DNA of 64,000 bases from a virus: IMG/VR virus record IMGVR_UViG_3300042292_000345, positions 13,326 through 77,325 of that record; one strand, 5' to 3'. Each line of letters starts with the position of its first letter. Positions within the stretch are counted from its first letter, which is position 1. A program made the translations under genes and the position numbers. Under the pieces are notes generated by a model. The model was not told where the DNA came from. It made no database searches and was given only the letters and a program-made list of their open reading frames with translations. Of the stretch, positions 31,168-47,569 are shown one piece after another.

Positions 31168-31425
31168 ATGTTAATCAATGAATTAAAACTAGCTAATAAA
31201 TCTGAAAGATGTTCTTTAGTAATATCTTTATTAGATAAGAACAATACCCCTTGGAGATCCTCTAACAGAGGAATCCATATCACAGTAGAACGTGAACATT
31301 ATAAATTAGATATATGGCCTACTACTCTCAAATTTAGGATAACAGAATATCCGTTAGGTGAAGGAAATACTTTCAGTGGTGCTGAAGAATTCTTAGAAAA
31401 TCTGGAAAAGTATTTGCGCAAATAA
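31168..31425 (+). CDS. Hypothetical protein
   Basis: 85-aa ORF, AAGGA RBS, DIWPTT.KF motif. Confidence 0.65.
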   Translation: MLINELKLANKSERCSLVISLLDKNNTPWRSSNRGIHITVEREHYKLDIWPTTLKFRITEYPLGEGNTFSGAEEFLENLEKYLRK

Positions 31426-31454
31426 TGGTATCTTATATGAATACCATAAGGTAT
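31416..31454 (+). promoter_or_regulatory. Candidate phage RNAP promoter, copy 1
   Basis: GCGCAAATAATGGTATCTTATATGAA-TACCATAAGGTAT; conserved at 32552 and 46386; each copy lies just upstream of an RBS. Confidence 0.65.
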
Positions 31455-31479
31455 ATCATAACCCATTAGGAGTAGTATC

Positions 31480-31920
31480 ATGTTAGTAGAATTAAATAAT
31501 GCAGCAGGCAATTGTGCAACTTTAGCATTTGGATTAAATGTAGCACTAGAAACAAGATTGTATAAAAGCGGATGGAGACAATTCTCGTCTGATATAGACT
31601 TTAAGACGAAAGGAGAAGCATTGTATAACGCCCTTTTAAGTCCAAGAATTTATCTTGATTTAGAAGATGGCGAAAGTTGGGATAAATGCAGCTTATCTAT
31701 TTCAAAATTAAAAATAAAGAGGGGAAGTTCAGATGTTAGAGCTGAAATTGTTGAGCTTAAGGATGGATCTTTTGATATAGTAATTGTGTATTCAGTTTTT
31801 GATGATGATCTTGGTGATTATAACCTTGATCTTGAAATGAGAGGTGTACACTCTAATCATGAGGATTTATCAGCAGTTATTAATTGGGCGGCAAGCCTTG
31901 GCATTAAATTTGTAAAGTAG
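31480..31920 (+). CDS. Hypothetical protein
   Basis: 146-aa ORF with AGGAG RBS directly after promoter motif. Confidence 0.75.
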   Translation: MLVELNNAAGNCATLAFGLNVALETRLYKSGWRQFSSDIDFKTKGEALYNALLSPRIYLDLEDGESWDKCSLSISKLKIKRGSSDVRAEIVELKDGSFDIVIVYSVFDDDLGDYNLDLEMRGVHSNHEDLSAVINWAASLGIKFVK

Positions 31921-31929
31921 GAGAATAGT

Positions 31930-32043
31930 ATGTTAGATTTAATAATAATCAGCGCAGGTTTTGCGGTATGTGTAATATGGTTAAGATGTTTTAAAGAACC
32001 TACATATGTATTAGGTAAGAACCACATCAGTTTTAAAAAATAA
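31930..32043 (+). CDS. Small membrane peptide (37 aa)
   Basis: AGGAG RBS; MLDLIIISAGFAVCVIWLRCFK hydrophobic stretch. Confidence 0.5.
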   Translation: MLDLIIISAGFAVCVIWLRCFKEPTYVLGKNHISFKK

Positions 32044-32059
32044 TTTATTGGAGTAAGTT

Positions 32060-32548
32060 ATGAGAGTTATTAAGACACATTTTAAAGATATCATTTTCAA
32101 TAGTAAAGACAAAGTAGTAGCCGTAAAGAAGTATGCCACACATGCCACTAAGTCCCATAAAAGTATAAAATTAGAACCCCCCTATATTTATATGGTTGGA
32201 GATAACTATATTGGATATCATAAACTTAGTAATAGGTATGAGGTTGTGACTATTAGAAGAAACAAAGGAGCTGGTAAATGCCATTTAGCAAACTTTGCTA
32301 GTAGGAGTGGTGCTGAAGGTTTTTTAAAGTATCTTTTATTTTCACACTACACTTATAGCGAGTTATTAGAAATGGCAGGTCTTCCACAAGATCCACGTTA
32401 TACAGATCGGCCATCCTTCTTTCAATTTGAAAATTCTAATTTTGAATATCCATATAATGATATGTATGCGATTTTAGATTCAGACATACCTTTGAAACAG
32501 CTAAAAATGTTGCAAAAGAGAATTTCAGACTTTTTAAGTGAAAAATAA
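32060..32548 (+). CDS. Protein with AP2-like DNA-binding domain
   Basis: YIGYHKLSNRYEVVTIRRNKGAGKCHLANFASRSGAE resembles AP2 (RY...I....K..HLG.F.....A). Confidence 0.4.
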   Translation: MRVIKTHFKDIIFNSKDKVVAVKKYATHATKSHKSIKLEPPYIYMVGDNYIGYHKLSNRYEVVTIRRNKGAGKCHLANFASRSGAEGFLKYLLFSHYTYSELLEMAGLPQDPRYTDRPSFFQFENSNFEYPYNDMYAILDSDIPLKQLKMLQKRISDFLSEK

Positions 32549-32551
32549 AAC

Positions 32552-32590
32552 ACGCAAAAACAAGTATCTTATATGAATACCATAAGGTAT
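32552..32590 (+). promoter_or_regulatory. Candidate phage RNAP promoter, copy 2
   Basis: ACGCAAAAACAAGTATCTTATATGAA-TACCATAAGGTAT; 27 bp identical to copy 1. Confidence 0.65.
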
Positions 32591-32625
32591 CTCAATAACT
32601 ATAATTAACTTTTTGGAGTATTATC

Positions 32626-32796
32626 ATGTTTACAGTTGAAATCAACAGAAAAGCACTTGAATCACAATTAGAGCTAGCGCAAGCAGCTCTAGATGGCTTA
32701 AGAGCAGATGACGTCTTTAAAATGCTGCCAGGTTATTCAGTAATGGTAGCACGTAAAGAACGTGAAATTGAAGAATTAAAAATTCGTTTAGCTTAA
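32626..32796 (+). CDS. Small coiled-coil protein (56 aa, not in ORF track)
   Basis: GGAG RBS; MFTVEINRKALESQLELAQAALDGL..KEREIEELKIRLA. Confidence 0.65.
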   Translation: MFTVEINRKALESQLELAQAALDGLRADDVFKMLPGYSVMVARKEREIEELKIRLA

Positions 32797-32813
32797 TTAT
32801 TTGGAGAGCAGTC

Positions 32814-33101
32814 ATGAGAAGAATCGACCACGCACAAAGAAACATTGCAAGATTATTTAAAACAAGAACAGCAGTAAATGCTAAATCAGTTAAGAAAGAG
32901 TTAGTAAATCCTCTAGTAGCAGGGACTACTGGTGCAGTAGTAGGCGCAACAAGCTTTGCTAGAAATACTAGCTTAGCACTATCAGTTACCTCTGAGGTAG
33001 TTGGTGGTACGGCTGTTGGTATTCTATCAGTAGGTACGTTAGCAACAGCAGGAATCTTAGGGTATGTAGCTTATAAAGCTGCAAGAAAAATCCTAAGATA
33101 A
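32814..33101 (+). CDS. Gly/Ala-rich putative membrane protein
   Basis: GxxxG-rich hydrophobic C-terminal half with basic ends. Confidence 0.6.
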   Translation: MRRIDHAQRNIARLFKTRTAVNAKSVKKELVNPLVAGTTGAVVGATSFARNTSLALSVTSEVVGGTAVGILSVGTLATAGILGYVAYKAARKILR

Positions 33102-33108
33102 ACACAAC

Positions 33109-33164
33109 CCAACCTATTAGAGGCCCTTAGGCTCCTAATAGGTTGGTATTTAATTTTTTTTTTT
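33109..33164 (+). terminator. Long hairpin plus T11 tract
   Basis: CCAACCTATTAG...CTAATAGGTTGG, then T11 at 33154-33164. Confidence 0.7.
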
Positions 33165-33186
33165 CTCCACAACTAAAGGAGGTAAC

Positions 33187-33555
33187 ATGTTAGCATTAGG
33201 TTTAAAATGTATGACATTAGCCTTGTATCTCGAAGGCCGAAATCAATCTGAAATGGTTCAGACAAAGCTGGCTGAAGTAGTAATGGAGAGAGCTGATTGG
33301 CAACCTGCTCTCGTTTGTAAAGTATTGAAAGAACCAGCGCAATTCACTGGTTATCCACACAGGGTAAAGCTTCCAATACCTAAAAATAAACCCGACAGGG
33401 TTGCACTAGTGACTGTAAATAAAGTCGCAAGGAAGGTGATGTTTGGCAGCAGTCGCCCTAAGCATCGTTGTAAGTTCTTTAATCATAAAAGATTAGGAAA
33501 GCGTTTTAATACTAGCAATAATGCAGTCATTGCTGGTGATTTTATATTTTATTAG
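33187..33555 (+). CDS. SleB/CwlJ-like cell wall hydrolase (Hydrolase_2)
   Basis: CMTLALYLEGRNQS..AEVVMER..VCKVLKEPAQFT..GDFIFY. Confidence 0.8.
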   Translation: MLALGLKCMTLALYLEGRNQSEMVQTKLAEVVMERADWQPALVCKVLKEPAQFTGYPHRVKLPIPKNKPDRVALVTVNKVARKVMFGSSRPKHRCKFFNHKRLGKRFNTSNNAVIAGDFIFY

Positions 33556-33563
33556 GAGGATAT

Positions 33564-33698
33564 ATGGAGTACGCAGTATTAGGTCTATTAGTAGTAAATA
33601 CGCTGTTACTATTAGCAGTATTTGGGGGAATCAGAATGGTAATAAGTTTACAAGACTCTATAAGCCAAGTTCTTATCAAAGGCAATAGTATTCATTAA
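33564..33698 (+). CDS. Small single-TM protein (44 aa)
   Basis: AGGAGG RBS; MEYAVLGLLVVNTLLLLAVFGGIRMV. Confidence 0.6.
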   Translation: MEYAVLGLLVVNTLLLLAVFGGIRMVISLQDSISQVLIKGNSIH

Positions 33699-33738
33699 CA
33701 CTAACAAAGACAGAGGACTGTCTATTTTGGAGGCATTT

Positions 33739-34074
33739 ATGCTACCGTTTATATTGGGAGTTGTAATTGGCGCAGCCTTTACTAGCTCTAAGCGATACGA
33801 TCGAGAGATCAATAAAATATTAAAAACACGAAAAACAAGGCTACAAAATCTTAGACAACAACCACAAATAACGCTTGAGGGTATGGAATACGATTCAAAA
33901 GCAAAAGAGTACTTTGTGTCTATGATAACTGTTGATAGAAATACTTTTACACTTAGTACAATTCCTATTATGCTGAATGAGGTAAAATACTATTCAGTAA
34001 TAATAAAGAATCAAGTAAGACCATTTTTAATTGACAAACTTGAACGCCTAAAGTTGCAAGACTTTATGGGCTAG
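33739..34074 (+). CDS. Hypothetical protein with N-terminal membrane anchor
   Basis: GGAGG RBS before ATG 33739; MLPFILGVVIGAAF. Confidence 0.65.
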   Translation: MLPFILGVVIGAAFTSSKRYDREINKILKTRKTRLQNLRQQPQITLEGMEYDSKAKEYFVSMITVDRNTFTLSTIPIMLNEVKYYSVIIKNQVRPFLIDKLERLKLQDFMG

Positions 34075-34124
34075 ACTAACTCTATGAGGCGGTGCAGCTC
34101 ATAGGGTCTTGCAGTATTTTTCAT

Positions 34125-34161
34125 GACCTCCCTTCGGGGAGGTCTCCTTATTTTTTTTTTT
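34125..34161 (+). terminator. cUUCGg hairpin plus T11 tract
   Basis: GACCTCCC-TTCG-GGGAGGTC, T11 at 34151-34161. Confidence 0.75.
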
Positions 34162-34322
34162 AGGAATTATATGAAATACTGTATGACACTAACTGCATCA
34201 CTCATGATACTAGGGCCAACACACCAAGCGTTATTTATGGGTACTTTAATTTATCTTTATTGCGTAGGTAAGAAATATGTTGGTTAGATTAATATTATTA
34301 CTATTGATATCGGAGGCAATTA

Positions 34323-36389
34323 ATGGAAGTAGCAACGATAGAAACGCTGTATCTGTATACAAGACCAAAAAGAAGCGGTGATCCAATTCTATTTGCAGAG
34401 CTTATTACAGCTATGGGTAGGGCACTTTCAGATTCTAGATGTTCGACTGAAAGAGCCAGAATTGGTGCTAACTTTATTTACAATCTAGAAGAGCAGTGTA
34501 TTCTAGAACTTCAACTGAATCAAGATAATCAATATATAATTAAGATTATCAATGATGCATGGATCTTAGATATAATGAGGAAGTGTGTAAAGATCCATCA
34601 CAGTACTTTTCCTTCTCTACTACCATATGATGACTGGGATAAATTTTATCATAGTACAGGTGCTAAACTAATAAAAAGTAAAGCACCAGAATTGAAAAAG
34701 ATAAGCCCTAATACTCATCCTATTGTATTTGATAGTATTAACAGGTCTCAAAGTGTTGGTTGGAATATCAATAAAAGAATTCTACCAATAGCTGAGTGGT
34801 GTCTGAAAAGACAAGAAGCGGCTTTTAGTGATATCTGGAATCAAGTAAAGAAAGAAGCTAAAGCAACAAAGTCTAGAGAGTCTAAGACAATCATTCAGAT
34901 TGCTAAAGAGTTTATTAATTCAACTTTTTATCATCTGTATTATCTTGACTTCCGTGGCAGGTGTTATCCAACTACTGCATACCTTCACGAGCAAGGTTCA
35001 GATCTAGCAAAGGGTTTATTACTCAGAGCTGATAAGAAAAGAATCGGTGAAGGTGGTTATAGATGGTTATGTATCAGTATAGCATCTAACTGGGCAGGTG
35101 CAAGTGGTCGTCCAGATGGTGCAAAGACTGATAAGATTCCTATGTTAGAAAGGTATCAATGGACTCAAGCAAATCTAGATGTGTTGCTTAGCTATGCCAG
35201 AGATCCTCAGAAGAACAAAGGATGGATGGATGCTGATAAGTGTTGGCAGTTTCTAGCAGCTTGTATAGAGCTAAAGAAAATACATGATACTGTATTATAT
35301 CATGGAGCAAATATTTATGATTATGAAAGTCATCTAGAATGTTTTATAGATGGCTCAACTAATGGCTCACAGCATCTGGCAGCACTTACTAGAGATGAAG
35401 TAACAGCACCATATGTTAACTTAGTACCTAGTAGACTGCCTGGTGATTTATATACGTATGTTGCAAACTCTATATGGAAATTTGTCAGTGTTACGTTAGC
35501 TGATCTAGATCCCAATCTAGTAGCTGCAGCAGAAGTATTTGTAGATACTATAATTGAAATGAAAGCACAAGTTAGAAACACTGAACCTAGAAGTGAACTA
35601 AGAAAAGCGCATTCAGAGAAATTACAGTATTATAGGAATCAATATCACTATCTAGAAGAGACAGCAGCTTTTGTCTTCTGGAATAGAGTTAAAGATTTAA
35701 AAGAACGAAGAAAGATCGTTAAACGTGGTGTAATGACTTTACCATATGGCGGGACTTCTTACGGTCTTGGAGAGCAGGTTCTAGAAGACTCTAAAAAGCA
35801 TGGAATAGATCTCTTAAAAGATCTTGATATGAAATGGGGCACTTTCATGGGTAGACTTATCTTTATGAACTGTAAAGATTCATTAAAGAATCCTATGAAA
35901 CTTCTAGATATATTTAGTAAAGCAGGAGTGAAGGCTGAAAAAAGAGATGAGTATCTTTCTTGGACAGTACCTGTAACTAAGTTTCCTGTAATCCAGCATT
36001 ACGATGAAGGTACAATAAAGAAAGTGTTAATTATGTATGGGGGTAGAGAATTAAAGATATCTATCTATCACTCTGAGTTTCCTACTAAAGCTAAAAGGAA
36101 GCAAGGGCAAGGAGCAGCACCTAATATTGTTCATTCACTTGATGCAGCACATCTAATGCTTACTAAAGTAACTTGTCCATTTACAGTAACAACTATTCAC
36201 GATTCTTATGGATGTTTGTTAGCTGATATGGATGATTTATTTAGAATAGTTAGAGAGACATTTGTAGATCTTTATAGAGTAAATCCATTAGATTATTTGA
36301 TGGAAGAAATTCAAGGAGATATGAGTGGTTTAGAAATCGGTGCGCTAGATATCAATAGTGTACTAAAATCAGAATATTGCTTTAGTTAA
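34323..36389 (+). CDS. Single-subunit (T7-family) DNA-directed RNA polymerase, 688 aa
   Basis: DFRGRCYP, motif A DGSTNGSQH, motif B RKIVKRGVMTLPYG, PNIVHSLDAAH, motif C IHDSY, C-terminal SEYCFS. Confidence 0.96.
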   Translation: MEVATIETLYLYTRPKRSGDPILFAELITAMGRALSDSRCSTERARIGANFIYNLEEQCILELQLNQDNQYIIKIINDAWILDIMRKCVKIHHSTFPSLLPYDDWDKFYHSTGAKLIKSKAPELKKISPNTHPIVFDSINRSQSVGWNINKRILPIAEWCLKRQEAAFSDIWNQVKKEAKATKSRESKTIIQIAKEFINSTFYHLYYLDFRGRCYPTTAYLHEQGSDLAKGLLLRADKKRIGEGGYRWLCISIASNWAGASGRPDGAKTDKIPMLERYQWTQANLDVLLSYARDPQKNKGWMDADKCWQFLAACIELKKIHDTVLYHGANIYDYESHLECFIDGSTNGSQHLAALTRDEVTAPYVNLVPSRLPGDLYTYVANSIWKFVSVTLADLDPNLVAAAEVFVDTIIEMKAQVRNTEPRSELRKAHSEKLQYYRNQYHYLEETAAFVFWNRVKDLKERRKIVKRGVMTLPYGGTSYGLGEQVLEDSKKHGIDLLKDLDMKWGTFMGRLIFMNCKDSLKNPMKLLDIFSKAGVKAEKRDEYLSWTVPVTKFPVIQHYDEGTIKKVLIMYGGRELKISIYHSEFPTKAKRKQGQGAAPNIVHSLDAAHLMLTKVTCPFTVTTIHDSYGCLLADMDDLFRIVRETFVDLYRVNPLDYLMEEIQGDMSGLEIGALDINSVLKSEYCFS

Positions 36390-36398
36390 GGAGAGCAA

Positions 36399-36788
36399 AT
36401 GAAAGAATTTAAAGATATTAAAGATTTAGAAAATTTACCACACGTAGACAATCTTATTGACGTTATTACAGATAGTCTTGATATTGATACAGCTTTAGAT
36501 TTTATTGCTGGATTTTCTTTCATGTCTATTTTTGGGGGTAATCTATTCCTGATTGAGACTAAAGAGGACTTGAAAAGTGTCTGTCCTGATTTAGAATCAG
36601 ATGAAGGTTATATAACGCCTTTTGATACATACGACTATGTTACTGACCTACCTACTAGTGATAAAAAGCTGTACCATTTGCTCACTATTATTAATAACAA
36701 CTCTGGTGGACCGACTTACATTGTCCCTTCAGAGCTTGTAGACCAAGATGTAGAATTTCTTATTGCAGCAGTATTAGCGCAAAATTGA
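36399..36788 (+). CDS. Hypothetical acidic protein
   Basis: 129-aa ORF, AAGGAG RBS, NNSGGPTYIVP motif. Confidence 0.7.
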   Translation: MKEFKDIKDLENLPHVDNLIDVITDSLDIDTALDFIAGFSFMSIFGGNLFLIETKEDLKSVCPDLESDEGYITPFDTYDYVTDLPTSDKKLYHLLTIINNNSGGPTYIVPSELVDQDVEFLIAAVLAQN

Positions 36789-36797
36789 GAGGATATT

Positions 36798-37073
36798 ATG
36801 AAAGTATTAAAACAAGTTGAAGCATTTAACACTACAGCTGAAGATATAGAAGAGCTATTTCGCATTATGTATCATTGTGAAAAATTCACCTTCAATGGGC
36901 ATCAGATAGTAGGTTTGACATTTGATCAAAACGGTCTTAAAATTACTGTATTAATTAACGCTGTTAAATTTACTGTTAATCTTAATCCAGAAACAATATT
37001 AGTACTTGACGGACATAGATTATCTATGGTTACTAGAAAGGTTTTCAATAAGGAGTACATTAAATGGGCATGA
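36798..37073 (+). CDS. Hypothetical protein
   Basis: 91-aa ORF with GAGG RBS. Confidence 0.65.
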   Translation: MKVLKQVEAFNTTAEDIEELFRIMYHCEKFTFNGHQIVGLTFDQNGLKITVLINAVKFTVNLNPETILVLDGHRLSMVTRKVFNKEYIKWA

Positions 37074-37255
37074 TGACAGCTAATATAGTGTCACACAGTA
37101 TTACAAATGATTCTGATGAGTTGCTGATAGAGTTGTTTGTAGAAGAGAAAGATGTGTTTAACATCTATATTGCTAAAGATGATATGTCTATTGAAGACAT
37201 TAAATGTATTTTTGGCGCACTTAACTCTGTTTACAATAAGTTAAACGGAAAATAA
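37064..37255 (+). CDS. Hypothetical protein
   Basis: 63-aa ORF with AAGGAG RBS. Confidence 0.6.
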   Translation: MGMMTANIVSHSITNDSDELLIELFVEEKDVFNIYIAKDDMSIEDIKCIFGALNSVYNKLNGK

Positions 37256-37278
37256 TCTAATCTCTAAGGAGAACTAAA

Positions 37279-37827
37279 ATGGCATTACCAGTACCTGAAT
37301 TGAAAACAAAAGTTGTAATCCGTGACGTAGTATTGAAATACGCCCATCTAGGTCGTCCAAGCGGAAAGTTCACTCCTGAGAATCCTACATACGAGGTTAA
37401 TATTACTACGTATGATATGGATGTAAAGAAATTGCTACAAGCAATGGGTGCAAAAGTAGAGACCGATGTTGAAGAAGAAAGCGGAAAAGCCTGCCATTCT
37501 ACTACACTTCGGAGTAAATCTTTGAATGTAAAAACAGGTGAGAAGATGATACCACCAACAGTAGTAGGTATGAATAAGCTTCCAATAGATCCTAATATTA
37601 TTGGTAATGGTTCTATTGGTGATGTTGTTATTTCTTCTTACGCATACACTTTCAAAGAAAAGAAAGGTACTGCAGTAAATCTACATGCAGTTAGAGTTAA
37701 AGTTCTTCACAAGTATGAAAGAGCAGAGTCTAATAGCCTTGACTTATTTGAAGATGATGATTCAGAAACTGTAGTAATTGAATCTGAAGAAGCATCTGCA
37801 GATGATTTTGATGATATGCCTTACTAG
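37279..37827 (+). CDS. Single-stranded DNA-binding protein (T7 gp2.5-like)
   Basis: YAHL..P, IGNGS.GDV, L.AV.V motifs; acidic tail ending in an aromatic residue (DDFDDMPY). Confidence 0.85.
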   Translation: MALPVPELKTKVVIRDVVLKYAHLGRPSGKFTPENPTYEVNITTYDMDVKKLLQAMGAKVETDVEEESGKACHSTTLRSKSLNVKTGEKMIPPTVVGMNKLPIDPNIIGNGSIGDVVISSYAYTFKEKKGTAVNLHAVRVKVLHKYERAESNSLDLFEDDDSETVVIESEEASADDFDDMPY

Positions 37828-37835
37828 GAGCTGAT

Positions 37836-38135
37836 ATGGTTAATGAAGAGATCAAGAAAGAAGGTAGTCCATATAAGGGCAGTGAAGCATATCACTACCA
37901 GAGTTATATAGACGACTACCAGTGGATTGAAGCCATTGGAAGAATGCCTAATTTTAGAGAACTATCTAATGGTAAATTCTTTGGAGTAGTCGAAGTATTG
38001 GCTAGAAAATATCTAGATAGATTAGGTAAGAAAGACGACCCTGTTCAGGAATTAGATAAAGCTATTTGGTATTTAAGATATCTTAGAGCTTGTATTAAAA
38101 CTAACAGTGTTGCAGATCCTAAAAATATGGAGTAA
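37836..38135 (+). CDS. DUF3310 / T7 gp1.7-like putative nucleotide kinase
   Basis: HYQ....QWIEAI..KYLDRLGKKDDPVQELDKAIWYL. Confidence 0.75.
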   Translation: MVNEEIKKEGSPYKGSEAYHYQSYIDDYQWIEAIGRMPNFRELSNGKFFGVVEVLARKYLDRLGKKDDPVQELDKAIWYLRYLRACIKTNSVADPKNME

Positions 38136-38137
38136 GT

Positions 38138-38302
38138 ATGTTTTATAATAGAGACATCGACGTAGATAGAGAGAACTGTGATTATCCTGAAAGTACTGAT
38201 AATTGGGATGAAGATGATGGTGTTATTGTAGGTGCACATTCTTACAATAAAAACTGCTCTTGCTATCTATGTGATCCACCAGGATTTATGCCAGGTGATT
38301 AA
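38138..38302 (+). CDS. Small acidic Cys-containing protein (54 aa, not in ORF track)
   Basis: GGAG RBS; ..HSYNKNCSCYLCDPPG. Confidence 0.5.
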   Translation: MFYNRDIDVDRENCDYPESTDNWDEDDGVIVGAHSYNKNCSCYLCDPPGFMPGD

Positions 38303-38311
38303 GTAATTAGA

Positions 38312-38338
38312 GCGCCCTAGTGACAGTAGGGCGTTTTT
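38312..38338 (+). terminator. Intrinsic terminator
   Basis: GCGCCCTA-GTGACAG-TAGGGCGT-TTTT. Confidence 0.65.
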
Positions 38339-38352
38339 ATTTGGAGATATTT

Positions 38353-40236
38353 ATGAAGTTGGTATACGACATAGAGACTGATGGTCTACTGCATGATTGT
38401 ACTAGAATGTGGATTCTACGTGCAGAAGATGTAACAACAAAAGAGAAGTATAGGTTCCTTGAAGGTGACTTTGGCTGGAAAGAGCTATTCAATAACGCTG
38501 AAATGCTAATAGGTCATAATATAATTTCCTATGATAACATGGTATTAAAGAAATTATTTAATTATGATATTTCACCTGATGTAAAAGTAGTAGATACTTT
38601 ATTACTATCTATGATATTAGACTATATGAGATTTAAAGGTCTAGGTCATAGTTTAGAAAGATGGGGCGAAGCACTAGGCTACCCTAAGATAGACTACCAT
38701 GATTGGTCGCAGTATTCTGAAGAGATGGATATCTATTGTGAACGAGACGTTTCATTAAATGTCAGAGTTCTAGCAAATCTTAACAGAGAATTTCAGCTAG
38801 CTCCTAACAGAGAGTTGCTTTCAAAATATATAAGATGCGAACATATTGCTGCTACTTTTGTAGCTAAAGCAAATCTGAAAGGTTGGCGTATTAATATGGA
38901 GAAGGCTATCACTCTGAGAGATAAGCTAGAAGCTGAAAAAGCAGCTATTGTAGAAGCTCTAGAAGCTGATCTAGGTATCCGCGCAGTTGCTACTGATCTT
39001 AAACTAGGAGATGTAAAAGTACATGAACCTAAATTTACTAAGTATGGTACATATGTAAAATATCAGGCTGATTGGTTTGGTATTCAACCTGAAGATGCTT
39101 ATCAAGAAGATGAAAGTAAAGATATTCTTGGAGGCGCTTATTGTAGAGTAGAGTTCAGACCTCTAAAGCTGAATAGTGTAGCTGATGTAAAAGTTTATTT
39201 GTTCAGACTAGGTTGGGTACCTACTCAATTTAATGTGAAAATACTTGAAGATAATAGTAGAGTAAATACTACTCCTAAAATAACTGAGGATTCAATAGAG
39301 TTCTTAGGAGAAAAAGGAAGAATGTATCTAGATTATTTAACTATTAGTTCAAGACTGTCGATTGTAAAAACTTGGGTAGAGGAGGAGAAAAATGGAAGAG
39401 TGCATGGAGATTGTTTCACTATTGGTACTCCTAGCATGCGGGCTAGGCACAGTATCATTGTCAATGTTCCCGCTGTCAAGTCTAAGTATGGTGGTGAGAT
39501 GCGCGATCTTTTCATTGCTGATGAAGGAAAGAAAATCATTGGAGCTGACTCTGCTGGTAATCAGGCTAGGGGTTTAGCGCACTTTATTAATGATGAAAGC
39601 TTTACTAAGCTTTTATTAGAAGAAGATATTCATCAATTCAATGCTAATGCACTTACAGAAGTGCTTAGAGATTCCCTTCAAATGGATCACGAGGTATCGA
39701 GAGATCGTGCTAAAAGAATTTTATATGCTTTTCTCTTTGGTGCTTCAGGTGCTAAACTCTGGAGTTATGTATTTGATTATTTTGATCCTGATAAGGGAAA
39801 TATTCTAAAAGATGGCTTTACAGCTAAAGTACCAGGATTTAAAGCACTTGTTGATAGTCTTAACAAAGAGTTTAAGAACAGTAAGGTAATCAAAGATGGC
39901 AAGCGTGATAAAAACGGCTATATACGTAGCCTTGCTGGTAATAAGTTATGGATTGGCGGTAGGCATAAGTTGCTTGTATATCTGCTACAGTCAGCTGAAA
40001 AAATCACTTGTTGCTCGGCTATAAAGTGGTTCAGTGAAAAGATGGAAGAAGAAGGAATTCCTTATGAACCTTTGATATTCTATCATGATGAAATACAATT
40101 TCAAGTAGATGAAATATATGCTAAAAGATCTGCTGAAATTGCTGCAATGGCCTTTAAAGAAGGTCCAAAAGAGTTTGGAGTCACTATCATGGATGGTGAA
40201 GCCAAGATTGGTAATAGTTGGTATGAAACACATTAA
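38353..40236 (+). CDS. Family A DNA polymerase with 3'-5' exonuclease (T7 gp5-like)
   Basis: YDIETDG, GHNIISYD, YCERDV; motif A DSAGNQAR, motif B RDRAKRILYAFLFG, motif C HDE; ATG 38353 follows GGAG. Confidence 0.95.
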   Translation: MKLVYDIETDGLLHDCTRMWILRAEDVTTKEKYRFLEGDFGWKELFNNAEMLIGHNIISYDNMVLKKLFNYDISPDVKVVDTLLLSMILDYMRFKGLGHSLERWGEALGYPKIDYHDWSQYSEEMDIYCERDVSLNVRVLANLNREFQLAPNRELLSKYIRCEHIAATFVAKANLKGWRINMEKAITLRDKLEAEKAAIVEALEADLGIRAVATDLKLGDVKVHEPKFTKYGTYVKYQADWFGIQPEDAYQEDESKDILGGAYCRVEFRPLKLNSVADVKVYLFRLGWVPTQFNVKILEDNSRVNTTPKITEDSIEFLGEKGRMYLDYLTISSRLSIVKTWVEEEKNGRVHGDCFTIGTPSMRARHSIIVNVPAVKSKYGGEMRDLFIADEGKKIIGADSAGNQARGLAHFINDESFTKLLLEEDIHQFNANALTEVLRDSLQMDHEVSRDRAKRILYAFLFGASGAKLWSYVFDYFDPDKGNILKDGFTAKVPGFKALVDSLNKEFKNSKVIKDGKRDKNGYIRSLAGNKLWIGGRHKLLVYLLQSAEKITCCSAIKWFSEKMEEEGIPYEPLIFYHDEIQFQVDEIYAKRSAEIAAMAFKEGPKEFGVTIMDGEAKIGNSWYETH

Positions 40237-40244
40237 GGGGATTT

Positions 40245-40541
40245 ATGAACACACAAGAAGCATTACTAGTAATGGTTGCTGAGGAAGCAGCTGAAGTTGC
40301 ACAAGCAGCATGTAAGTGCCTAAGATTTACTCCAAATCACGTTTATAGTGAGTATAAGAAAAGTAATATGGATAGGCTTTTAGAAGAACTAACAGATCTG
40401 ACAGCAACTGTTGGATTACTTATGTCTAATATTAACAAAGAGGATATAGATATGGAGTTGATAAGTGAAAGTACTAGAATAGCAATGCAACGTAAAATTA
40501 AAAGCCTACAAGTATCTAAAATTGTAGGAGCAGTAAAATGA
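40245..40541 (+). CDS. MazG-like nucleotide pyrophosphohydrolase
   Basis: EEAAEVAQAACK..RF...LLEELTDL. Confidence 0.7.
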   Translation: MNTQEALLVMVAEEAAEVAQAACKCLRFTPNHVYSEYKKSNMDRLLEELTDLTATVGLLMSNINKEDIDMELISESTRIAMQRKIKSLQVSKIVGAVK

Positions 40542-41329
40542 GTCTATATGCACTAGTAGATGGTGATGTAATTGTTCATTTAAGCTGTCCTAGTAGAAGA
40601 GCTTTCCATGATATTGATCCAGATCTTCCAGATGATGAAGTTGAGTACTCTTTGGAAGATGATGAAAAGTATTTATCTGCTATCTTCTCAATCTACAAGA
40701 ATAAGATAAATAATATTGTTCAGACTCTTTTTGTAGATAAAGTTCTAGTAGCTGTAAAATCTGAAAGTAATTTTAGATATAATGTCTCATCAGCCTATAA
40801 GAGCCACCGTATTAATAAACCAGGTGGTGAAATGGTTGCTGCATTACGTAGACGAGTACTGGAAGAAAATCTAGCAGTATGCCTTCCAGACTACGAGGCA
40901 GACGATCAACTTAGAATCTGGGCTGAAACACTTAGGGAAATGGGAGACGATTTCATAGTTGTAACTATTGATAAAGATCTCAAAATGATTGGAGGAAACT
41001 TCTATAATCCTAAGAGTTGTATCTCATTTGAAGTCCTACCTAGAGAAGCAGCTTTTAACTATTATCAGCAAATTCTAATGGGTGATGCTGTTGATAACAT
41101 TAAGGGTATTCCTAAAATCGGTCCTAAAAAGTCTGAGAAAATACTAGATCATTGTAGAACTCATAAAGACTTTAAAGAGGCAGTAGACACTCAGTACATT
41201 ATGGCATTTGGAGATAATTGGATGCAAGAACTAGAAGTAACAGGTAAGCTTATTCATTTAAGTAGATTTATTGGAGACCAATTCAACCTAGAGGAGTGGT
41301 TTGATGACCGTTCAACAGCCGTTATTTAA
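40538..41329 (+). CDS. 5'-3' exonuclease / RNase H (T7 gp6-like)
   Basis: LVDGD, NFR....YK..R, EADD, DKDL, GDAVDNIKGIPKIGPKK. Confidence 0.9.
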   Translation: MSLYALVDGDVIVHLSCPSRRAFHDIDPDLPDDEVEYSLEDDEKYLSAIFSIYKNKINNIVQTLFVDKVLVAVKSESNFRYNVSSAYKSHRINKPGGEMVAALRRRVLEENLAVCLPDYEADDQLRIWAETLREMGDDFIVVTIDKDLKMIGGNFYNPKSCISFEVLPREAAFNYYQQILMGDAVDNIKGIPKIGPKKSEKILDHCRTHKDFKEAVDTQYIMAFGDNWMQELEVTGKLIHLSRFIGDQFNLEEWFDDRSTAVI

Positions 41330-41756
41330 TGGTCACTGGAGTTTTGAAGAACCTATGGGCGGTGCTGGCTATGTTGGTTTTATTTATATTATCAAGATAT
41401 GGCCAGAAGGTAAGTTATATCTAGGTAAGAAACATTACCAAGTATCTAGAGGTAAATCGAAAGGGGATGAATCTAATTGGAGATTCTATTGTTCTAGTAG
41501 TGATGCTATGAAGAAAATCGTATCTATCTACGGAATGCAGGATTTAGAATTCATTTGCCTTGAGCAATACAAGACTAAGTCAGGCCTAAGCTATGCTGAA
41601 ACTAAGTCTTTAGTATTAGTAGACGCGCCTTTAACTGATATGTGGCTTAATAAGAGAATTGAAGAAGTCGCATGGAATGTAAAAGAGCCAATGTCTGATC
41701 GACACTACAACAAACTGATGGAGATGAATTTGTGGCGACAAAAGGCACATTCGTAA
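41301..41756 (+). CDS. GIY-YIG family endonuclease (T4 endonuclease II-like)
   Basis: GFIYII....LYLGKK..ESNWRFYCSSS..YAE. Confidence 0.75.
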   Translation: MMTVQQPLFNGHWSFEEPMGGAGYVGFIYIIKIWPEGKLYLGKKHYQVSRGKSKGDESNWRFYCSSSDAMKKIVSIYGMQDLEFICLEQYKTKSGLSYAETKSLVLVDAPLTDMWLNKRIEEVAWNVKEPMSDRHYNKLMEMNLWRQKAHS

Positions 41757-43384
41757 GACACACACACTGTGACAAATGCGGTAGTAGTGATGCCAAAGCT
41801 TTATATAGTAATGGTAGCGCTTTCTGCTTTAAATGTGGTAAGTACTTTAAATCCGAGGAAGAAGAAGTGCAAGCAACTAAGATAGTGGTAAATAAGAAAG
41901 ATGATAGCGCAAGAATTGACGATATCCTGAAATTACCTTTTAAAGGGATGGCATCCAGAAAAATAACCAAGGAGATATTTGAGTTCTTTGAAGTCAGGAG
42001 TGAAGTAAATGAAGACGGTAGTATTAAGAAGCATTTTTATCCTTACGGGGATGATGCCTTTAAAGTTAGAACGATTGAAGATAAAAGATTTCAATGGATC
42101 AACAACTCTACCACCTTATTTGGAATGGATAAATTTCAGCAAGGTGGTAGAAGACTTATTATAACTGAAGGTGAGCTAGATGCTATGAGTGTAGCGCAAG
42201 CATGTTTACTTAAGTATGATAAGATCTTTCCTGTTATCTCTTTACAGAGTGCTACAGGTAAGAAGTCATTTGCTGCAAATCGTGATTGGATCATGAGCTT
42301 TGGAGAGATTATTCTTTTCTTTGATCAAGATGAAGCAGGTAAAGAAGCACTAGAATATGCAATTAAGGCTTTAGATATTAGTAAGTTAAAGATTGTAGAA
42401 AGTCCTGAAAAGGATGCTAGTGATATGCTAGTCAAACATGGTGTTGAACCTTTATATAAATGTATCTGGGAGGCTCATAAATATGTGCCAGCTGGATTTA
42501 TTAGTAAAGATGAGATCTGGAAAAGACTAGTAGAGTATAACGAAAAGCCGTCTATCAAGTATCCTCCATGTCTTGAAGGTATTAATACTAAGACTAAAGG
42601 CTATCGTGATGGTGAGATTGATTTGTTTATATCAGGTACTGGCAGTGGTAAGAGTACCTTAATTAGAGAAATCATTTTATCAGCACTTGAGAATACAGAT
42701 CGTATGGTAGGTGTCATGGCACTGGAAGAATCACCAGAAGAAACTGTTAGAAAACTAGTAGCCATGAAGCTATGTACTAATCCTGTGTATCAACCATTAA
42801 CACCTGATGAAATGCATGCACCATATCAGGAGCTGATGAAAGATGACAGATTGATGTTACTTGATCATCAAGGTGCTATTTCAGATATTGGTAGTATTGC
42901 TAGTAAATTAGAGTATATGGCTTTGATGGGTTGTAAAAGTATCTTTATTGACCATATAACTATGCTAGTGAGTGAAGGTACTGAAGAACTAACAGGTAAT
43001 GAAGCTACTGATAAGATTATGAATATGCTGCTTAGGTTTAGTAAAAAGCATAATGTTCATGTTGGTGTTGTTTCACATTTAAGAAAAGCACCAAATGGTT
43101 CTAAATCATTTGAAGAGGGTAAGATACCTTCTGTAGATGATATCAGAGGTTCTGGTAGTATTAAACAAGTTTCTCATACAATTATTGCATTTGCTAGAAA
43201 CCTAGTAGCAGATACAGCAGAGGAACAAAATGTAATTAAGATAAGTATACTTAAGTGCAGATTTACGGGTCTTACAGGTGCTGTTAGAGGTTCTAGATAT
43301 ATACCAGATACTGGTAGGCTAGAAATGAATGACGAGTCATTGAATGAAATTAGTTCACTATTTGATTATAAGGAAGAAGGATGA
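41732..43384 (+). CDS. Primase-helicase (T7 gp4-like)
   Basis: Zn finger CDKCGSSDA..CFKC, TOPRIM ITEGELDA and FDQDEAG, Walker A SGTGSGKS, IDHI, DIRGSGSIKQ. Confidence 0.95.
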   Translation: MATKGTFVRHTHCDKCGSSDAKALYSNGSAFCFKCGKYFKSEEEEVQATKIVVNKKDDSARIDDILKLPFKGMASRKITKEIFEFFEVRSEVNEDGSIKKHFYPYGDDAFKVRTIEDKRFQWINNSTTLFGMDKFQQGGRRLIITEGELDAMSVAQACLLKYDKIFPVISLQSATGKKSFAANRDWIMSFGEIILFFDQDEAGKEALEYAIKALDISKLKIVESPEKDASDMLVKHGVEPLYKCIWEAHKYVPAGFISKDEIWKRLVEYNEKPSIKYPPCLEGINTKTKGYRDGEIDLFISGTGSGKSTLIREIILSALENTDRMVGVMALEESPEETVRKLVAMKLCTNPVYQPLTPDEMHAPYQELMKDDRLMLLDHQGAISDIGSIASKLEYMALMGCKSIFIDHITMLVSEGTEELTGNEATDKIMNMLLRFSKKHNVHVGVVSHLRKAPNGSKSFEEGKIPSVDDIRGSGSIKQVSHTIIAFARNLVADTAEEQNVIKISILKCRFTGLTGAVRGSRYIPDTGRLEMNDESLNEISSLFDYKEEG

Positions 43385-44412
43385 GTGTAAGTATATTATC
43401 ACCTAATTATGTAGGTGCAAAACCAACAATGTTGATCCCTAAAGAAACGTACACGTACGATTATCCTCGGGCAATTGAGTTTGCTAAAGAACAAGTTAAG
43501 ATTCTTTGGCCACCTGATGAGATTGATGTAACAAAAGATATTCACGATATTAAGACAAGGCTTACAGAGGCTGAATATCACGGAATGGTTACTGTGTTAA
43601 AGTTATTTACACTGTATGAACAAAAAGTCGGACAAGACTACTGGGCAGGTTATTTCTGTAAAGTATTCAAGAGACCTGATTTAAGACGTATGGCTAATTG
43701 TTTTAGTTTCTTTGAAGATAATATTCATGCAGTATTCTACAATCGCATTAATGAACTACTAGGTCTTAATACAGATGAATTTTATTCGTCTTATAAAGAT
43801 ATTGAAGTTCTTGCAGGGCGTATGAAGTTTATTGAGGAGCTTGTTGGAAAGAAACATGATATCAACGATATTTTAGTATCAGTTGGTACTATGAGTATGA
43901 TTGAAGGTGCTATCTTGTTTGAGGGCTTCTCTTACATTAAACATTTCAATAGTACTGGTAAGAGTAAATTACTTACATTAAACAGTGGTATTGACTTTTC
44001 TATTGATGATGAGAGTATTCATGCACTAGCAGGTGCTTGGTCTTTCAATCAGCTACTTCATGAAGCAGTAACAGTTGAGGTAGCAGAGTTAGATCTTGAT
44101 TATGTACATGATACCTTAATTAAGAATGCTGAATGGCTATACGAGCATGAGTGTCTTATTAATGATAAGATTTATGAGAAAGGGGAGCCTGATAATATCA
44201 GTAAAAAGGCTTCTAATATCTTCATTGGTCACAGATTGAACAGATGCTTAGAGAACATGAATCTTCCTACTATCTTTAGTGAAGAAGGTAATAGTATTGC
44301 TAAATGGTTCTATAGGGATCTTAAATCTAGTGTCCTACATGACACATTCATTACACAGGGCTCTGATTATTCAAGAGCATGGAACAGAGATAAATTTGGA
44401 TGGAAAAAATAA
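43381..44412 (+). CDS. nrdB: Class I ribonucleotide reductase beta subunit
   Basis: W.P.EI, FEDNIHAVFY with radical Tyr, IEGAILF, DESIH. Confidence 0.9.
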   Translation: MSVSILSPNYVGAKPTMLIPKETYTYDYPRAIEFAKEQVKILWPPDEIDVTKDIHDIKTRLTEAEYHGMVTVLKLFTLYEQKVGQDYWAGYFCKVFKRPDLRRMANCFSFFEDNIHAVFYNRINELLGLNTDEFYSSYKDIEVLAGRMKFIEELVGKKHDINDILVSVGTMSMIEGAILFEGFSYIKHFNSTGKSKLLTLNSGIDFSIDDESIHALAGAWSFNQLLHEAVTVEVAELDLDYVHDTLIKNAEWLYEHECLINDKIYEKGEPDNISKKASNIFIGHRLNRCLENMNLPTIFSEEGNSIAKWFYRDLKSSVLHDTFITQGSDYSRAWNRDKFGWKK

Positions 44413-44413
44413 T

Positions 44414-46132
44414 ATGAGTACGATTTATGATAAATTAGATCTTGAAAGACATGCCCTTCAAAAAGAAGGTAAGTTACCTTTATGGTTCAAAACAGCAGGC
44501 TGGCAGTTATTTAAAGAGAAAGTAGCAACAGAAGAGTACCCTGATTTTCTATCAGTAACTAAAAGAGTAGCAGATGCTGCTGCTAAATTTACTGATGAAC
44601 CTTCATTCTATAGTGAAAAGTTCTTTGAGATTATCTGGAATGGTTGGTTAGGTATGTCAACACCTGTAATGTGTAATATGGGTGTTCCTAGTGGTAAGGC
44701 ACAAGCAGTATCTTGCAGTGGTGGTACAGTTAAAGATTCAGTAGCAGCATTCTATGATTCATTGAAAGAGTGTGCTTTGCTATCTCAGCAAGCTTATGGT
44801 ACTAGCTACTATTTAGGTGAGATTAGACCTAGAGGAGCAGCTATTAGTGGCGTAAAGGGCACGGCAAGTGGCCCATTGAATGTATTTGAGGATATTATTA
44901 AAGTAGCTCAACATATTACGCAAGGGTATCAAAGACGTGGTGCAGTAGCCTCTTATATCGAGATAGATCATCCTGATGCAAGAGAGATATTAACTTTCTG
45001 CAAGAACAACCCAGAGGATGCTAATTTGGGTTGGTGCATTAGTGATGCTTTTATTGATAAACTCAAAGCTGGTGACAAAGAAGCAAATGAGATGTTAAAA
45101 GATGTTATTATGCTACGTATGTTTCCTGGTATCGGATATATGATGTTCCCTGATAAGATCAATCGTAAACCAGTAGCAGCTTATGAAAGAAGAGGAATTA
45201 AAGTAAGAGCATCTAATCTATGCACTGAAATTGCTCTTTTCTCTGGAACAGATCATACAACTGGAAAAGAGTATACTTTTAGCTGTGTATTATCTTCTAT
45301 GAATGCAGCAACCTTTGATGAATGGAAAGATACTAATGCAGTATTCTTTGCAACAGTATTCTTAGATTGTATCAATCAAAGTCAAATTGAAGGTCTGAAA
45401 GGTAAGCCTACATTTGAAAAGATTGTAAACTTTGCTGAAGATACTAGAGCACTTGGCTTGGGTCTGATGGGTTTCCATACTTATCTTCAAGCTAATAACA
45501 TGGAGTATGCTGAGCTACAGTCACAATTCAAACTAAGAGAAATTTTAGGTCATATGAATTCTGAAAGCTTAAGAGCATCTCAATGGATGGCTAAGAACTG
45601 GGGTGAGCCTGAATGGTGTAAAGGACTAGGTCTTAGAAATACGCATAGAATGTGTATTGCGCCTAACTTATCTTCTTCACTAATTCTTGGTGGTGTCTCT
45701 CAGGGTATTGGTCCGATCTATAAGAATGCTTACGTTCAGCTAACACCTGTAGGTAAAGTTGAGAGAGCTTCACCAGCGTTAATGAAGATCATGAAAGAAC
45801 GTGGAATTGACTTCGAAAAGGCTTCTGAAAGAATTGTTAATAATGGAGGGTCAGTTCAATATGAGGACTATTTAACTGATAAAGAAAAGCAAGTATTTCT
45901 AACAGCCTTTGAGATCAATCAATTTGATATTCTTAGAATGGCAAGTATTGCTCAAAGAGACTTAGATCAGATGCAAAGCATTAATCTATATTTTGCGGCT
46001 GAAGAAGATGAGGAATATATACGTGATGTTCATCAAGCTGCAATAGAAGATGAGTATATACATTCATTGTATTATGTAAGAGGTACCAAAGGCGTTAGTA
46101 CACATAAAGAATGTACTAGTTGTCACGGGTAG
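44414..46132 (+). CDS. nrdA: Class I ribonucleotide reductase alpha subunit (short, no ATP cone)
   Basis: STPV..N.G, VSC, RRGA, SNLCTEI, CVLSS, RALGLG, IAPN.SSS, SLYY, C-terminal CTSC. Confidence 0.93.
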   Translation: MSTIYDKLDLERHALQKEGKLPLWFKTAGWQLFKEKVATEEYPDFLSVTKRVADAAAKFTDEPSFYSEKFFEIIWNGWLGMSTPVMCNMGVPSGKAQAVSCSGGTVKDSVAAFYDSLKECALLSQQAYGTSYYLGEIRPRGAAISGVKGTASGPLNVFEDIIKVAQHITQGYQRRGAVASYIEIDHPDAREILTFCKNNPEDANLGWCISDAFIDKLKAGDKEANEMLKDVIMLRMFPGIGYMMFPDKINRKPVAAYERRGIKVRASNLCTEIALFSGTDHTTGKEYTFSCVLSSMNAATFDEWKDTNAVFFATVFLDCINQSQIEGLKGKPTFEKIVNFAEDTRALGLGLMGFHTYLQANNMEYAELQSQFKLREILGHMNSESLRASQWMAKNWGEPEWCKGLGLRNTHRMCIAPNLSSSLILGGVSQGIGPIYKNAYVQLTPVGKVERASPALMKIMKERGIDFEKASERIVNNGGSVQYEDYLTDKEKQVFLTAFEINQFDILRMASIAQRDLDQMQSINLYFAAEEDEEYIRDVHQAAIEDEYIHSLYYVRGTKGVSTHKECTSCHG

Positions 46133-46140
46133 TAAACATT

Positions 46141-46165
46141 GGGGGTGCTTTCGAGCGCCCCTTTT
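46141..46165 (+). terminator. Intrinsic terminator
   Basis: GGGGTGCT-TTCG-AGCGCCCC-TTTT. Confidence 0.75.
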
Positions 46166-46178
46166 ATTCGGAGATTCT

Positions 46179-46382
46179 ATGAAACTTAAAAACAATCACA
46201 CATATGTTACACGTAATGGCAAGATGAGAATTCAAGTAAAGAAAACTCATGACTTATTTGAAGAGTATTTTAAGGCTGATATGGAGGGTCTGCCAGGTCT
46301 TATATGGAGTGTTGAAGGTAAGTTTCTTAGTCCTTTTAGTGGCTATGAACATTTAGATTTAATCCAAGAATCAAGAAAATAA
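46179..46382 (+). CDS. Small paralog-family protein (Y.TRNG...W...G...DL.E)
   Basis: YVTRNG..WSVEGK..LDLIQE, shared with 49131, 49538 and 51301. Confidence 0.7.
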   Translation: MKLKNNHTYVTRNGKMRIQVKKTHDLFEEYFKADMEGLPGLIWSVEGKFLSPFSGYEHLDLIQESRK

Positions 46383-46385
46383 AAC

Positions 46386-46411
46386 GCGCAAAAGGGGGTA
46401 TCTTATATGAA
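46386..46411 (+). promoter_or_regulatory. Candidate phage RNAP promoter, copy 3
   Basis: GCGCAAAAGGGGGTATCTTATATGAA, same spacing as copies 1 and 2. Confidence 0.65.
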
Positions 46412-46449
46412 ACAATAAAAGATATCCCTTTTTAATTTGGAGTATAACA

Positions 46450-46622
46450 TGAATACATTTGATATATTGGCTTTAAGACAGTCTGAAATAATCTACGTGA
46501 AAAATCGTGGACCACAGTTACATTTCTCAAAGATTATAAATCTATTGGGAATGCAACGAGCAGCTAAAGGCACTGTCCGTAAGTATTACCATAACGGTAA
46601 CACAATTACAATTTATAACTAG
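46450..46622 (+). CDS. Hypothetical protein
   Basis: ORF after promoter copy 3 with GGAG RBS; start approximate. Confidence 0.55.
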
Positions 46623-46631
46623 GAGAATAAC

Positions 46632-46862
46632 ATGAGAACAATTTATAGTTTTAACCTTTATCCATTAACAATCGCTCAGTTACATTCTTTGACTATCCAA
46701 GTGCATAGACTAAGAAATATTGGAGATTATAGAATTAATTTCGTAATGGATGAAGATGACAAGATCTACGCTGAAGTAGGGCTAGATAACGAAAAAGGTA
46801 GTACTATAGAAATATGGCTATTTTCGATAGACGAAATCGTAGCTACACTTAAATTGAAATAG
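46632..46862 (+). CDS. Hypothetical protein
   Basis: 76 aa; flanked by identical TAGGAGAATAACATGAGAA junctions. Confidence 0.7.
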   Translation: MRTIYSFNLYPLTIAQLHSLTIQVHRLRNIGDYRINFVMDEDDKIYAEVGLDNEKGSTIEIWLFSIDEIVATLKLK

Positions 46863-46871
46863 GAGAATAAC

Positions 46872-47072
46872 ATGAGAAGCAATAAATTCCTTGTCGGCAC
46901 AACTTGGGAAGATGGTTATAAAAGTAAACTAACAGTAAAGTTTAACGACCATGATGTACTAGTAGTAAAGGTAGAAATGTTAAATGGTACTGTTCGTGAT
47001 CGTATTCTAAACAAGGACGGGACAACAGATAAAGATACACGTCAATCAATTAAACAAGGCTGGAGAGGATAA
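46872..47072 (+). CDS. Hypothetical protein
   Basis: 66 aa, AGGAG RBS. Confidence 0.7.
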   Translation: MRSNKFLVGTTWEDGYKSKLTVKFNDHDVLVVKVEMLNGTVRDRILNKDGTTDKDTRQSIKQGWRG

Positions 47073-47073
47073 C

Positions 47074-47283
47074 ATGAAAGAACAAGTACAAGTAATTTTA
47101 GGTAGATTCAGTTATGGATCATTCTTAATAGGTATGATTGTATCAGCAGCGATAGCAGCAGTAGTTATGAAAGACTATCAGCTAGTACATAGTACTAAAA
47201 TCGGAGGAGTAGTAATCGAAGGAGATAGGATCTTTGAACTGGTAGAACTAAGCGACCCTTCACAGGGCGTGGTAAGAAAATAA
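47074..47283 (+). CDS. Small membrane protein
   Basis: FLIGMIVSAAIAAVVM hydrophobic segment. Confidence 0.65.
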   Translation: MKEQVQVILGRFSYGSFLIGMIVSAAIAAVVMKDYQLVHSTKIGGVVIEGDRIFELVELSDPSQGVVRK

Positions 47284-47307
47284 TATAATTATAATTTGGA
47301 GAACATC

Positions 47308-47466: not shown

Positions 47467-47498
47467 CAATTTTACATGAGGCTCCTACCTCCCCACTC

Positions 47499-47558: not shown

Positions 47559-47569
47559 CAGGTCATACA

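Follow-up and report, generated by a model that had tools for sequence, protein, structure and literature searches.

Long-tailed phages of a large family found in lakes and the sea almost certainly share an early-gene promoter, a bipartite sequence of about 27 bp that we call motif A, and we lean towards the view that this promoter is read by a polymerase carried in the capsid, in a relay of polymerases like that of phage N4. Motif A was noticed in a 64,000-nucleotide stretch of virus DNA (IMG/VR record IMGVR_UViG_3300042292_000345), which comprises bases 13326-77325 of the 77,325-bp record and is hereafter called the window; positions are given in window numbering unless marked "record". The phage, a 77-kb lake-water siphovirus, is distantly related to the marine Naomviridae, and its genome is designated G000. 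Two phage-encoded RNA polymerases (RNAPs) are central to the argument: RNAP#2, the product of the open reading frame (ORF) 34323-36389, and the MuF-polymerase, encoded at record 4216-8940. A second sequence, CCCGTTAAATTAA, is called motif B.

The pattern CGCAAA-N5-GTATCTTATATGAA has three exact copies in the window, all on the + strand (31417-31441, 32553-32577, and 46387-46411); 0.01 copies are expected from shuffled sequences, and no shuffle attains three. A first-pass annotation of this DNA had described the three copies and their fixed spacing correctly, although the starts that it gave (31416, 32552, and 46386) are each one base too low. A scan of the whole record found no fourth copy, and when the 14-base core was searched with up to three mismatches there was no enrichment, so that just the three exact copies stand out. 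Each full copy consists of the box TGCGCAAA, 4-5 variable bases, and the core GGTATCTTATATGAA, and begins at or just past a stop codon. Copy 1 (31415..31441, + strand), with box TGCGCAAA, variable spacer, and core GGTATCTTATATGAA, overlaps the stop codon of ORF 31168-31425, and its proposed start is G 31439. Copy 2 (32551..32577, + strand), with the box ACGCAAA, lies 3 nt past the stop of ORF 32060-32548 and has its proposed start at G 32575; copy 3 (46385..46411, + strand) lies 3 nt past the stop of ORF 46179-46382, within the replication and nucleotide-metabolism region, with the proposed start at G 46409. A GGAG ribosome site follows at distances of 27, 37, and 27 nt (copies 1, 2, and 3), and then an ATG; the earlier description of each copy as lying at a gene end, before a ribosome site that heads a cluster of small genes, is thus borne out. 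The same is true of its remark that two copies lie upstream of the RNAP gene and none before structural genes: copies 1 and 2 are 2.9 and 1.8 kb upstream of RNAP#2 ORF 34323-36389, and no structural gene of this genome is preceded by a copy.

The search for the motif in related genomes, which the first-pass annotation had proposed as a check, was strongly positive. The exact 20-base pattern of motif A occurs in 23 other IMG/VR contigs, and a homologue of RNAP#2 with 42-55% identity is present in 20 of the 22 motif-A contigs that could be searched, including all eight complete ones. Among six complete genomes whose proteins are about 50-65% identical, the core of motif A is the sole sequence of 12 or more bases common to all. 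When mismatches are allowed, there are 1-5 copies per genome, always on the coding strand, and the reversed control pattern has no match to the full bipartite pattern; for the 14-base core at two mismatches, the control pattern has scattered matches. Thirteen further large genomes, recruited through a different gene, also have the core together with RNAP#2. In all 24 large genomes examined, motif A, RNAP#2, and the MuF-polymerase are found together, and the RNAP#2 gene has at least one copy of the motif 0.9-7 kb upstream, at the boundary where tail and lysis genes give way to small early genes. In nine complete genomes, 28 of 28 copies are on the coding strand and most are less than 8 kb upstream of RNAP#2; the others fall between the RNAP#2/replication genes and the terminase or, in the 104-kb genome G017, 9-16 kb upstream of RNAP#2. 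From terminase to tape measure, these nine genomes contain one chance-like core only, without the upstream box.

A logo of 45 instances shows that the motif is longer than first described: T-G-C-G-C/G-A-A-A, three variable positions, and then a conserved R-G-GTATCTTATAT-GAA, in which R-G precedes the core. Conservation drops sharply past GAA (+3), and an A-rich, T-poor stretch lies beyond. Copies are often found 3' of a terminator hairpin, and an A-rich leader, then a ribosome site and ATG, come after them; this layout is that of a promoter. About 21 positions do not vary among phages of 33-47% GC. For a phage promoter, such near-invariance of 27 bp between genomes whose proteins are about 50% identical is unusual, and so is the presence of the motif in a few bacterial islands. 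A near-identical block in one orientation, placed before transcription units, is what a promoter of a single-subunit polymerase should look like, and a possible cognate polymerase is encoded in the same genome not once but twice. Taken together, we regard motif A as very probably a promoter.

In layout, motif A resembles the plan of T7/SP6-type promoters, namely G-11, C-7, an AT-rich stretch from -5 to -1, and a G start. As in the promoters of T7, T3, SP6, and Syn5, the conserved block ends at the start site, the proposed start is a purine, and the copies are identical within a genome and strictly co-oriented. In contrast to these, motif A is bipartite, with an extra box from -24 to -16 and variable positions from -15 to -13, and its copies are few and all early. 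Its sequence is unrelated to theirs, in agreement with the first-pass annotation, which had seen no likeness to T7, T3, or SP6 promoters.

RNAP#2 (34323..36389, + strand; 688 amino acids) is a T7-type RNA polymerase (PF00940, E 2e-72; T7 RNAP, E 2e-48) that is encoded downstream of copies 1 and 2 and has intact catalytic motifs and a specificity loop of T7 length. It aligns to the T7 polymerase from T7 residue 313 on, and therefore lacks most of the N-terminal promoter-binding domain. A single-protein search of IMG/VR with RNAP#2 gave no match. The RNAP#2 gene is in 2-4 pieces, commonly split near residue 470, among the relatives G005, G008, G014, G017, G019, G024, G027, G028, G031, and G034, and the MuF-polymerase gene is also interrupted in some relatives (by an HNH gene in EBPR siphovirus 1); these interruptions are probably introns or homing elements.

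The MuF-polymerase could not be seen in the first pass because its gene lies outside the window, 4.4 kb before it, between those for the portal and scaffold proteins. This 1574-amino-acid ORF has an N-terminal MuF domain (PF04233) and a C-terminal PF00940 region, and the catalytic motifs A, B, and C are intact in it as they are in RNAP#2. A phmmer search against PDB gave no match, and profile and fold searches were needed: a profile of 18 homologues matches the T7 polymerase weakly, and an AlphaFold model (pLDDT 68) gives matches of more than 800 columns to full-length T7 and mitochondrial polymerases. The MuF-polymerase is present in all eight complete motif-A genomes, in at least 117 IMG/VR contigs, and in the roseophages DSS3_VP1 and DSS3_PM1 and EBPR siphovirus 1. 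It is more conserved than RNAP#2 in a comparison of sequence sets that came from different genomes.

Motif B was found in the non-coding stretch before the terminase genes of relatives. It occurs in 19 of the 24 genomes with 2-8 copies each, 96 of 97 on the coding strand (relatives G004-G035, for example L033:16477 and L036:628), and its sites lie 3' of the RNAP#2 gene, among the replication genes, upstream of the terminase, and directly past the stop codon of the MuF-polymerase, ahead of the scaffold and capsid genes. This distribution would be as expected for a T7-type middle/late promoter. A copy of motif B often lies about 75-110 nt upstream of a copy of motif A. When the specificity loops of RNAP#2 from the 24 genomes are aligned, a long loop is common to the 19 motif-B genomes; G019 and G028 have substitutions in the loop, and motif B there has become CTGTTAAATTAA (CCCG to CTG); in G000 and G005 the loop is 12 residues shorter, of T7 length, and motif B is absent. 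Motif A is unchanged in all the genomes with differing loops and hence shows no co-variation with the loop of RNAP#2. As motif B varies with the loop and motif A stays constant, these patterns are suggestive of an RNAP#2 that tracks motif B and not motif A.

By elimination and because of its position, the MuF-polymerase is the enzyme to which motif A appears best assigned, and we incline, with considerable reserve, to this assignment. We propose the following relay. The MuF-polymerase would be packaged in the capsid and enter the cell together with the phage DNA; it would then bind the roughly 27 bp of motif A, with the box at -24 to -16 and the core at -12 to +3, and presumably start at the G of GAA. 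It would transcribe the small early genes and the RNAP#2 gene, and RNAP#2 would in most relatives transcribe middle and late genes from CCCGTTAAATTAA. In other words, the whole would be an N4-like polymerase relay made of different parts. The partial validity of the first-pass annotation is now clear: its proposal of a promoter for a phage single-subunit RNAP stands in so far as motif A is promoter-like, is not of sigma-70 type, and heads early clusters, and fails in the assignment to the product of ORF 34323, whose loop varies while the motif is constant. The positive feedback by that product, which it had also proposed, is not upheld either: it is motif B that shows a middle/late distribution and follows the changes in that loop, and the MuF-polymerase is the better candidate reader of motif A.

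The comparison with N4 (promoters P1-P3; gp50, then RNAPII gp15/gp16) is instructive. In both systems, a few near-identical promoters head the early region upstream of the genes for a second, small T7-type polymerase, an arrangement found here in 24 of 24 genomes as an early-end cluster upstream of the second polymerase gene; in both, the virion genes include one for the first T7-family polymerase; and the second is in two pieces in N4, as RNAP#2 is in some relatives. The differences are also considerable. N4 gp50 is a 3500-amino-acid protein with its own ejection domains, whereas here the polymerase is a 1574-amino-acid MuF fusion, in a siphovirus with a 3960-amino-acid tape measure; and, in contrast to N4 RNAPII, the RNAP#2 of most relatives has its own strong promoter consensus. 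A survey of packaged effector proteins places N4-type virion polymerases solely in N4-like phages (PMC5512222).

Among cultured phages, the nearest are the roseophages DSS3_VP1 and DSS3_PM1 (Naomviridae, Noahvirus; PMC8323127), with 35% identity for RNAP#2. They share with the present phage the gene order and both polymerases (33-35% identity), and they have an early motif, GCATCTATAATGA, which is identical to motif A at 10 of 14 positions and is present in 2-3 copies that head the early region at the same map position. If the relay operates in them, their early transcripts would start just 3' of GCATCTATAAT. They also have a second motif, ATAGGGTGCGTTAAAG, with many copies before middle and late genes, which shares CGTTAAA with motif B; in DSS3_PM1 there are at least 10 copies of it, some before the terminase and portal genes. 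They differ from the present phage in being marine, in their GC content of 48%, in their dU-DNA, and in other motif sequences. The paper on the Naomviridae mentions neither the polymerases nor phage promoters (PMC8323127), and a literature search found no paper on the MuF-polymerase or on promoters of this family; the claim is directly testable in these cultured relatives.

Several observations weigh against the assignment to the MuF-polymerase. First, an N4 promoter forms a DNA hairpin upstream of the start, with a stem of 5-7 bp and a 3-nt loop, whereas motif A has none that is conserved: a search for a conserved inverted repeat was negative, with a mean best stem of 4.2 as against 4.0 +/- 0.1 in permutations, and pairing of the variable spacer with the bases 3' of GAA was no better than in permuted controls. 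Second, motif A, RNAP#2, and the MuF-polymerase always co-occur, and presence or absence cannot separate the two polymerases; the co-variation of motif B with the loop rests on perhaps 2-3 evolutionary events; and k-mer and repeat searches of the present genome revealed no RNAP#2 promoter. Only two weak motif-B-like sites, too few to count, were seen here (GGTTAATTTAAT at the stop of the MuF-polymerase and GGTTAGATTAAT at 34282). Third, the packaging of the MuF-polymerase is deduced from the fusion to MuF and the place of the gene beside the portal gene. The phage DNA is present in lake-water metagenomes, and among the runs listed with this phage there are lake-water DNA runs only and no RNA runs. 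Lastly, the DSS3 variant of motif A includes a perfect TATAAT, and the motif occurs in bacterial bins in which neither polymerase was found, as described below.

The last two points belong to a different explanation, in which motif A is an early promoter for the host RNA polymerase, with sigma-70 or another sigma factor, and the MuF-polymerase has another task. The model for it is T7 A1-A3, where 2-3 strong promoters at the early genome end lie upstream of the phage polymerase gene, just as motif A heads the early region upstream of such a gene. The exact motif was found in seven bins of Gamma- and Alphaproteobacteria (7 of 185,579 species genomes): a Cellvibrionales bin with four copies (including L187:7100 and 19755), Oceanicoccus, three other Gammaproteobacteria, Caenibius in the middle of a 759-kb contig (L189:10644), and Brevundimonas (L173:1207-3677); one extra bacterial match is phage G007 binned into a genome. 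In these bins, a small ORF comes next, preceded by an A-rich leader and a ribosome site, and the neighbours are chromosomal. A search of the seven bins found neither polymerase and no PF00940 match, in bins that are incomplete and with a family search that was blank in control genomes too; this gives more weight to a signal that is read by something cellular. Against this explanation, no -35/-10 pair at a spacing of 16-18 bp fits the conserved letters, a sigma-70 scan of the coding strand finds no site at motif A and site counts not above those of shuffles, and no conservation is seen 17 bp upstream of any -10-like hexamer. The letters common to the freshwater and DSS3 versions (G.ATCT....ATGAA) fall outside the key -10 positions, and the freshwater version carries T where the essential A-11 should be, or G where T-7 should be. 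T7 A1-A3 are ordinary sigma-70 promoters that are unlike one another, whereas motif A has no sigma-70 geometry and is invariant across the phage family; its roughly 21 invariant positions, in phages of 33-47% GC and bacterial loci of up to 62% GC, are far beyond the needs of a sigma factor. Moreover, a motif found in just seven of 185,579 species genomes, mostly as a single copy, is no general host promoter. For these reasons, we consider transcription by the host polymerase unlikely.

The bacterial copies admit another speculation, namely that motif A is the MuF-polymerase promoter copied by some bacteria, whose island genes would stay silent until a phage injects its polymerase and, once switched on, would serve as infection-triggered defence or satellite genes. 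In Brevundimonas, the gene pair immediately upstream of the motif is Septu PtuA/PtuB, and in Caenibius an IS21 element lies downstream. Most of the small ORFs 3' of the bacterial motifs have no family match, two belong to phrog_28971, and none has homology to the phages compared. We consider this idea quite unlikely.

It is also conceivable that motif A is not a start site but is bound by a protein, for example as the operator of a conserved early regulator, or works at the RNA level as a processing or terminator signal. In many copies TTGCGCAA is a perfect palindrome, and copy 3 lies within a strong terminator-like hairpin (46390..46433, + strand; -19.6 kcal/mol, z -4.98), with the core of the copy in its 5' arm and a T-run at its end. 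The palindrome is, on the other hand, replaced by ACGCGC, CTGCGC, or a terminator stem in many copies, the permutation results above show no general hairpin, and scans with Rfam and for tRNA gave no match. Copies 1 and 2 have no strong hairpin (z -1.4 and -1.5, as against z -4.98 at copy 3), and the terminator-like hairpin at copy 3 is a local addition and not part of the general nature of motif A. This hairpin would act as a terminator that blocks read-through from the ribonucleotide reductase genes, and a transcript begun at 46409 would be without the 5' arm and hence escape termination. The strict orientation, the place before leader, ribosome site, and ATG, and the drop in conservation at +3 fit a start site, and an operator or RNA element seems to us highly unlikely.

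The least probable explanation, to which we give very little credence, is that of the first-pass annotation, in which motif A is the promoter of RNAP#2, which would amplify its own gene and the early genes: a T7-type enzyme with a specificity loop is indeed encoded downstream, and no alternative promoter for it was found in this genome, but motif A is identical despite a 12-residue indel and many substitutions in the loops, the relatives have a separate motif B with a middle/late distribution that varies with the loop, capsid and tail genes have no copy of motif A before them, most of the N-terminal domain with which the enzyme would contact the upstream box is missing, and a promoter before its own polymerase gene requires another enzyme first.

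If the assignment to the MuF-polymerase holds, motif A and this enzyme would form a compact, sequence-defined pair, distinct from those of T7, T3, SP6, Syn5, and N4, and most relatives would also hold a second orthogonal pair, RNAP#2 with CCCGTTAAATTAA. Long-tailed phages common in lakes and the sea would then offer two candidate orthogonal expression systems and a self-contained relay.

The genes that follow the three copies are small. The first gene 3' of copy 1 (31480..31920, + strand; 146 amino acids) has no family match, a 41-nt leader, and the initiation region GGAGTAGTATCATG; copy 2 is followed by small early genes (32626..34074, + strand) of 56, 95, 122, 55, and 115 amino acids, mostly without a family match; and six small genes follow copy 3 (46449..47625, + strand), with the DNA ligase gene next. 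A fixed translation start region, GGAGTATTAYCATG, is common to early genes (31466-31482, 32612-32628, 46436-46451, and the early region of G005). This sequence, common to G000 and G005, was considered as a promoter and rejected, as it is the translation start region of early genes.

The long ORFs of the genome are all on one strand, and the GC content is 36%. Located 3' of RNAP#2 is a T7-like replication set consisting of DNA polymerase, exonuclease, primase-helicase, ribonucleotide reductase, and ligase. The 3960-amino-acid ORF is a tape measure (TMP_3 and SLT), and tail and fibre ORFs come next, from which the phage is a siphovirus; the idea that this ORF might be an N4-type virion RNAP was rejected, because TMP_3 and SLT mark a tape measure. 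Tandem repeats of about 132 bp in a structural gene span both ends of the record (63560-64000 and record 1-260), and what looks like a 127-bp "direct terminal repeat" may therefore reflect an assembly break caused by the repeats and not the true phage ends. A 600-bp stretch of 27% GC at 55100-55530, before the terminase genes, is free of ORFs and contains repeated words of the CTTTAAGA/TCTTTAAGG type; a comparable region is present in every relative, and it might serve as an origin, for packaging, or for late promoters. Against the AT-rich background of this genome, three stretches of about 150 bp stand out as GC-rich (30991-31152, 49809-49960, and 54840-55000), with no match in Rfam.

A hairpin with a T11 tract (34125..34161, + strand) lies 160 nt before the RNAP#2 gene and is likely to be an attenuator or terminator of early transcription; a T-tract is present at the equivalent map position in many relatives. 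Seven A-T11/12 tracts in all occur in the window, on the coding strand only (33154, 34151, 47547, 51068, 52256, 53748, and 55306), five of which come after a hairpin, with a ribosome site directly 3'. Long T-tracts were also considered as a replacement for motif B and rejected, for 11 of the 19 motif-B genomes have them too. T-runs of 10-30 bases occur in 16 of the 24 relatives, nearly always on the coding strand and often 150-700 nt upstream of the RNAP#2 gene, and, like the A-T11/12 tracts, they are likely to be terminators or attenuators for phage polymerases.

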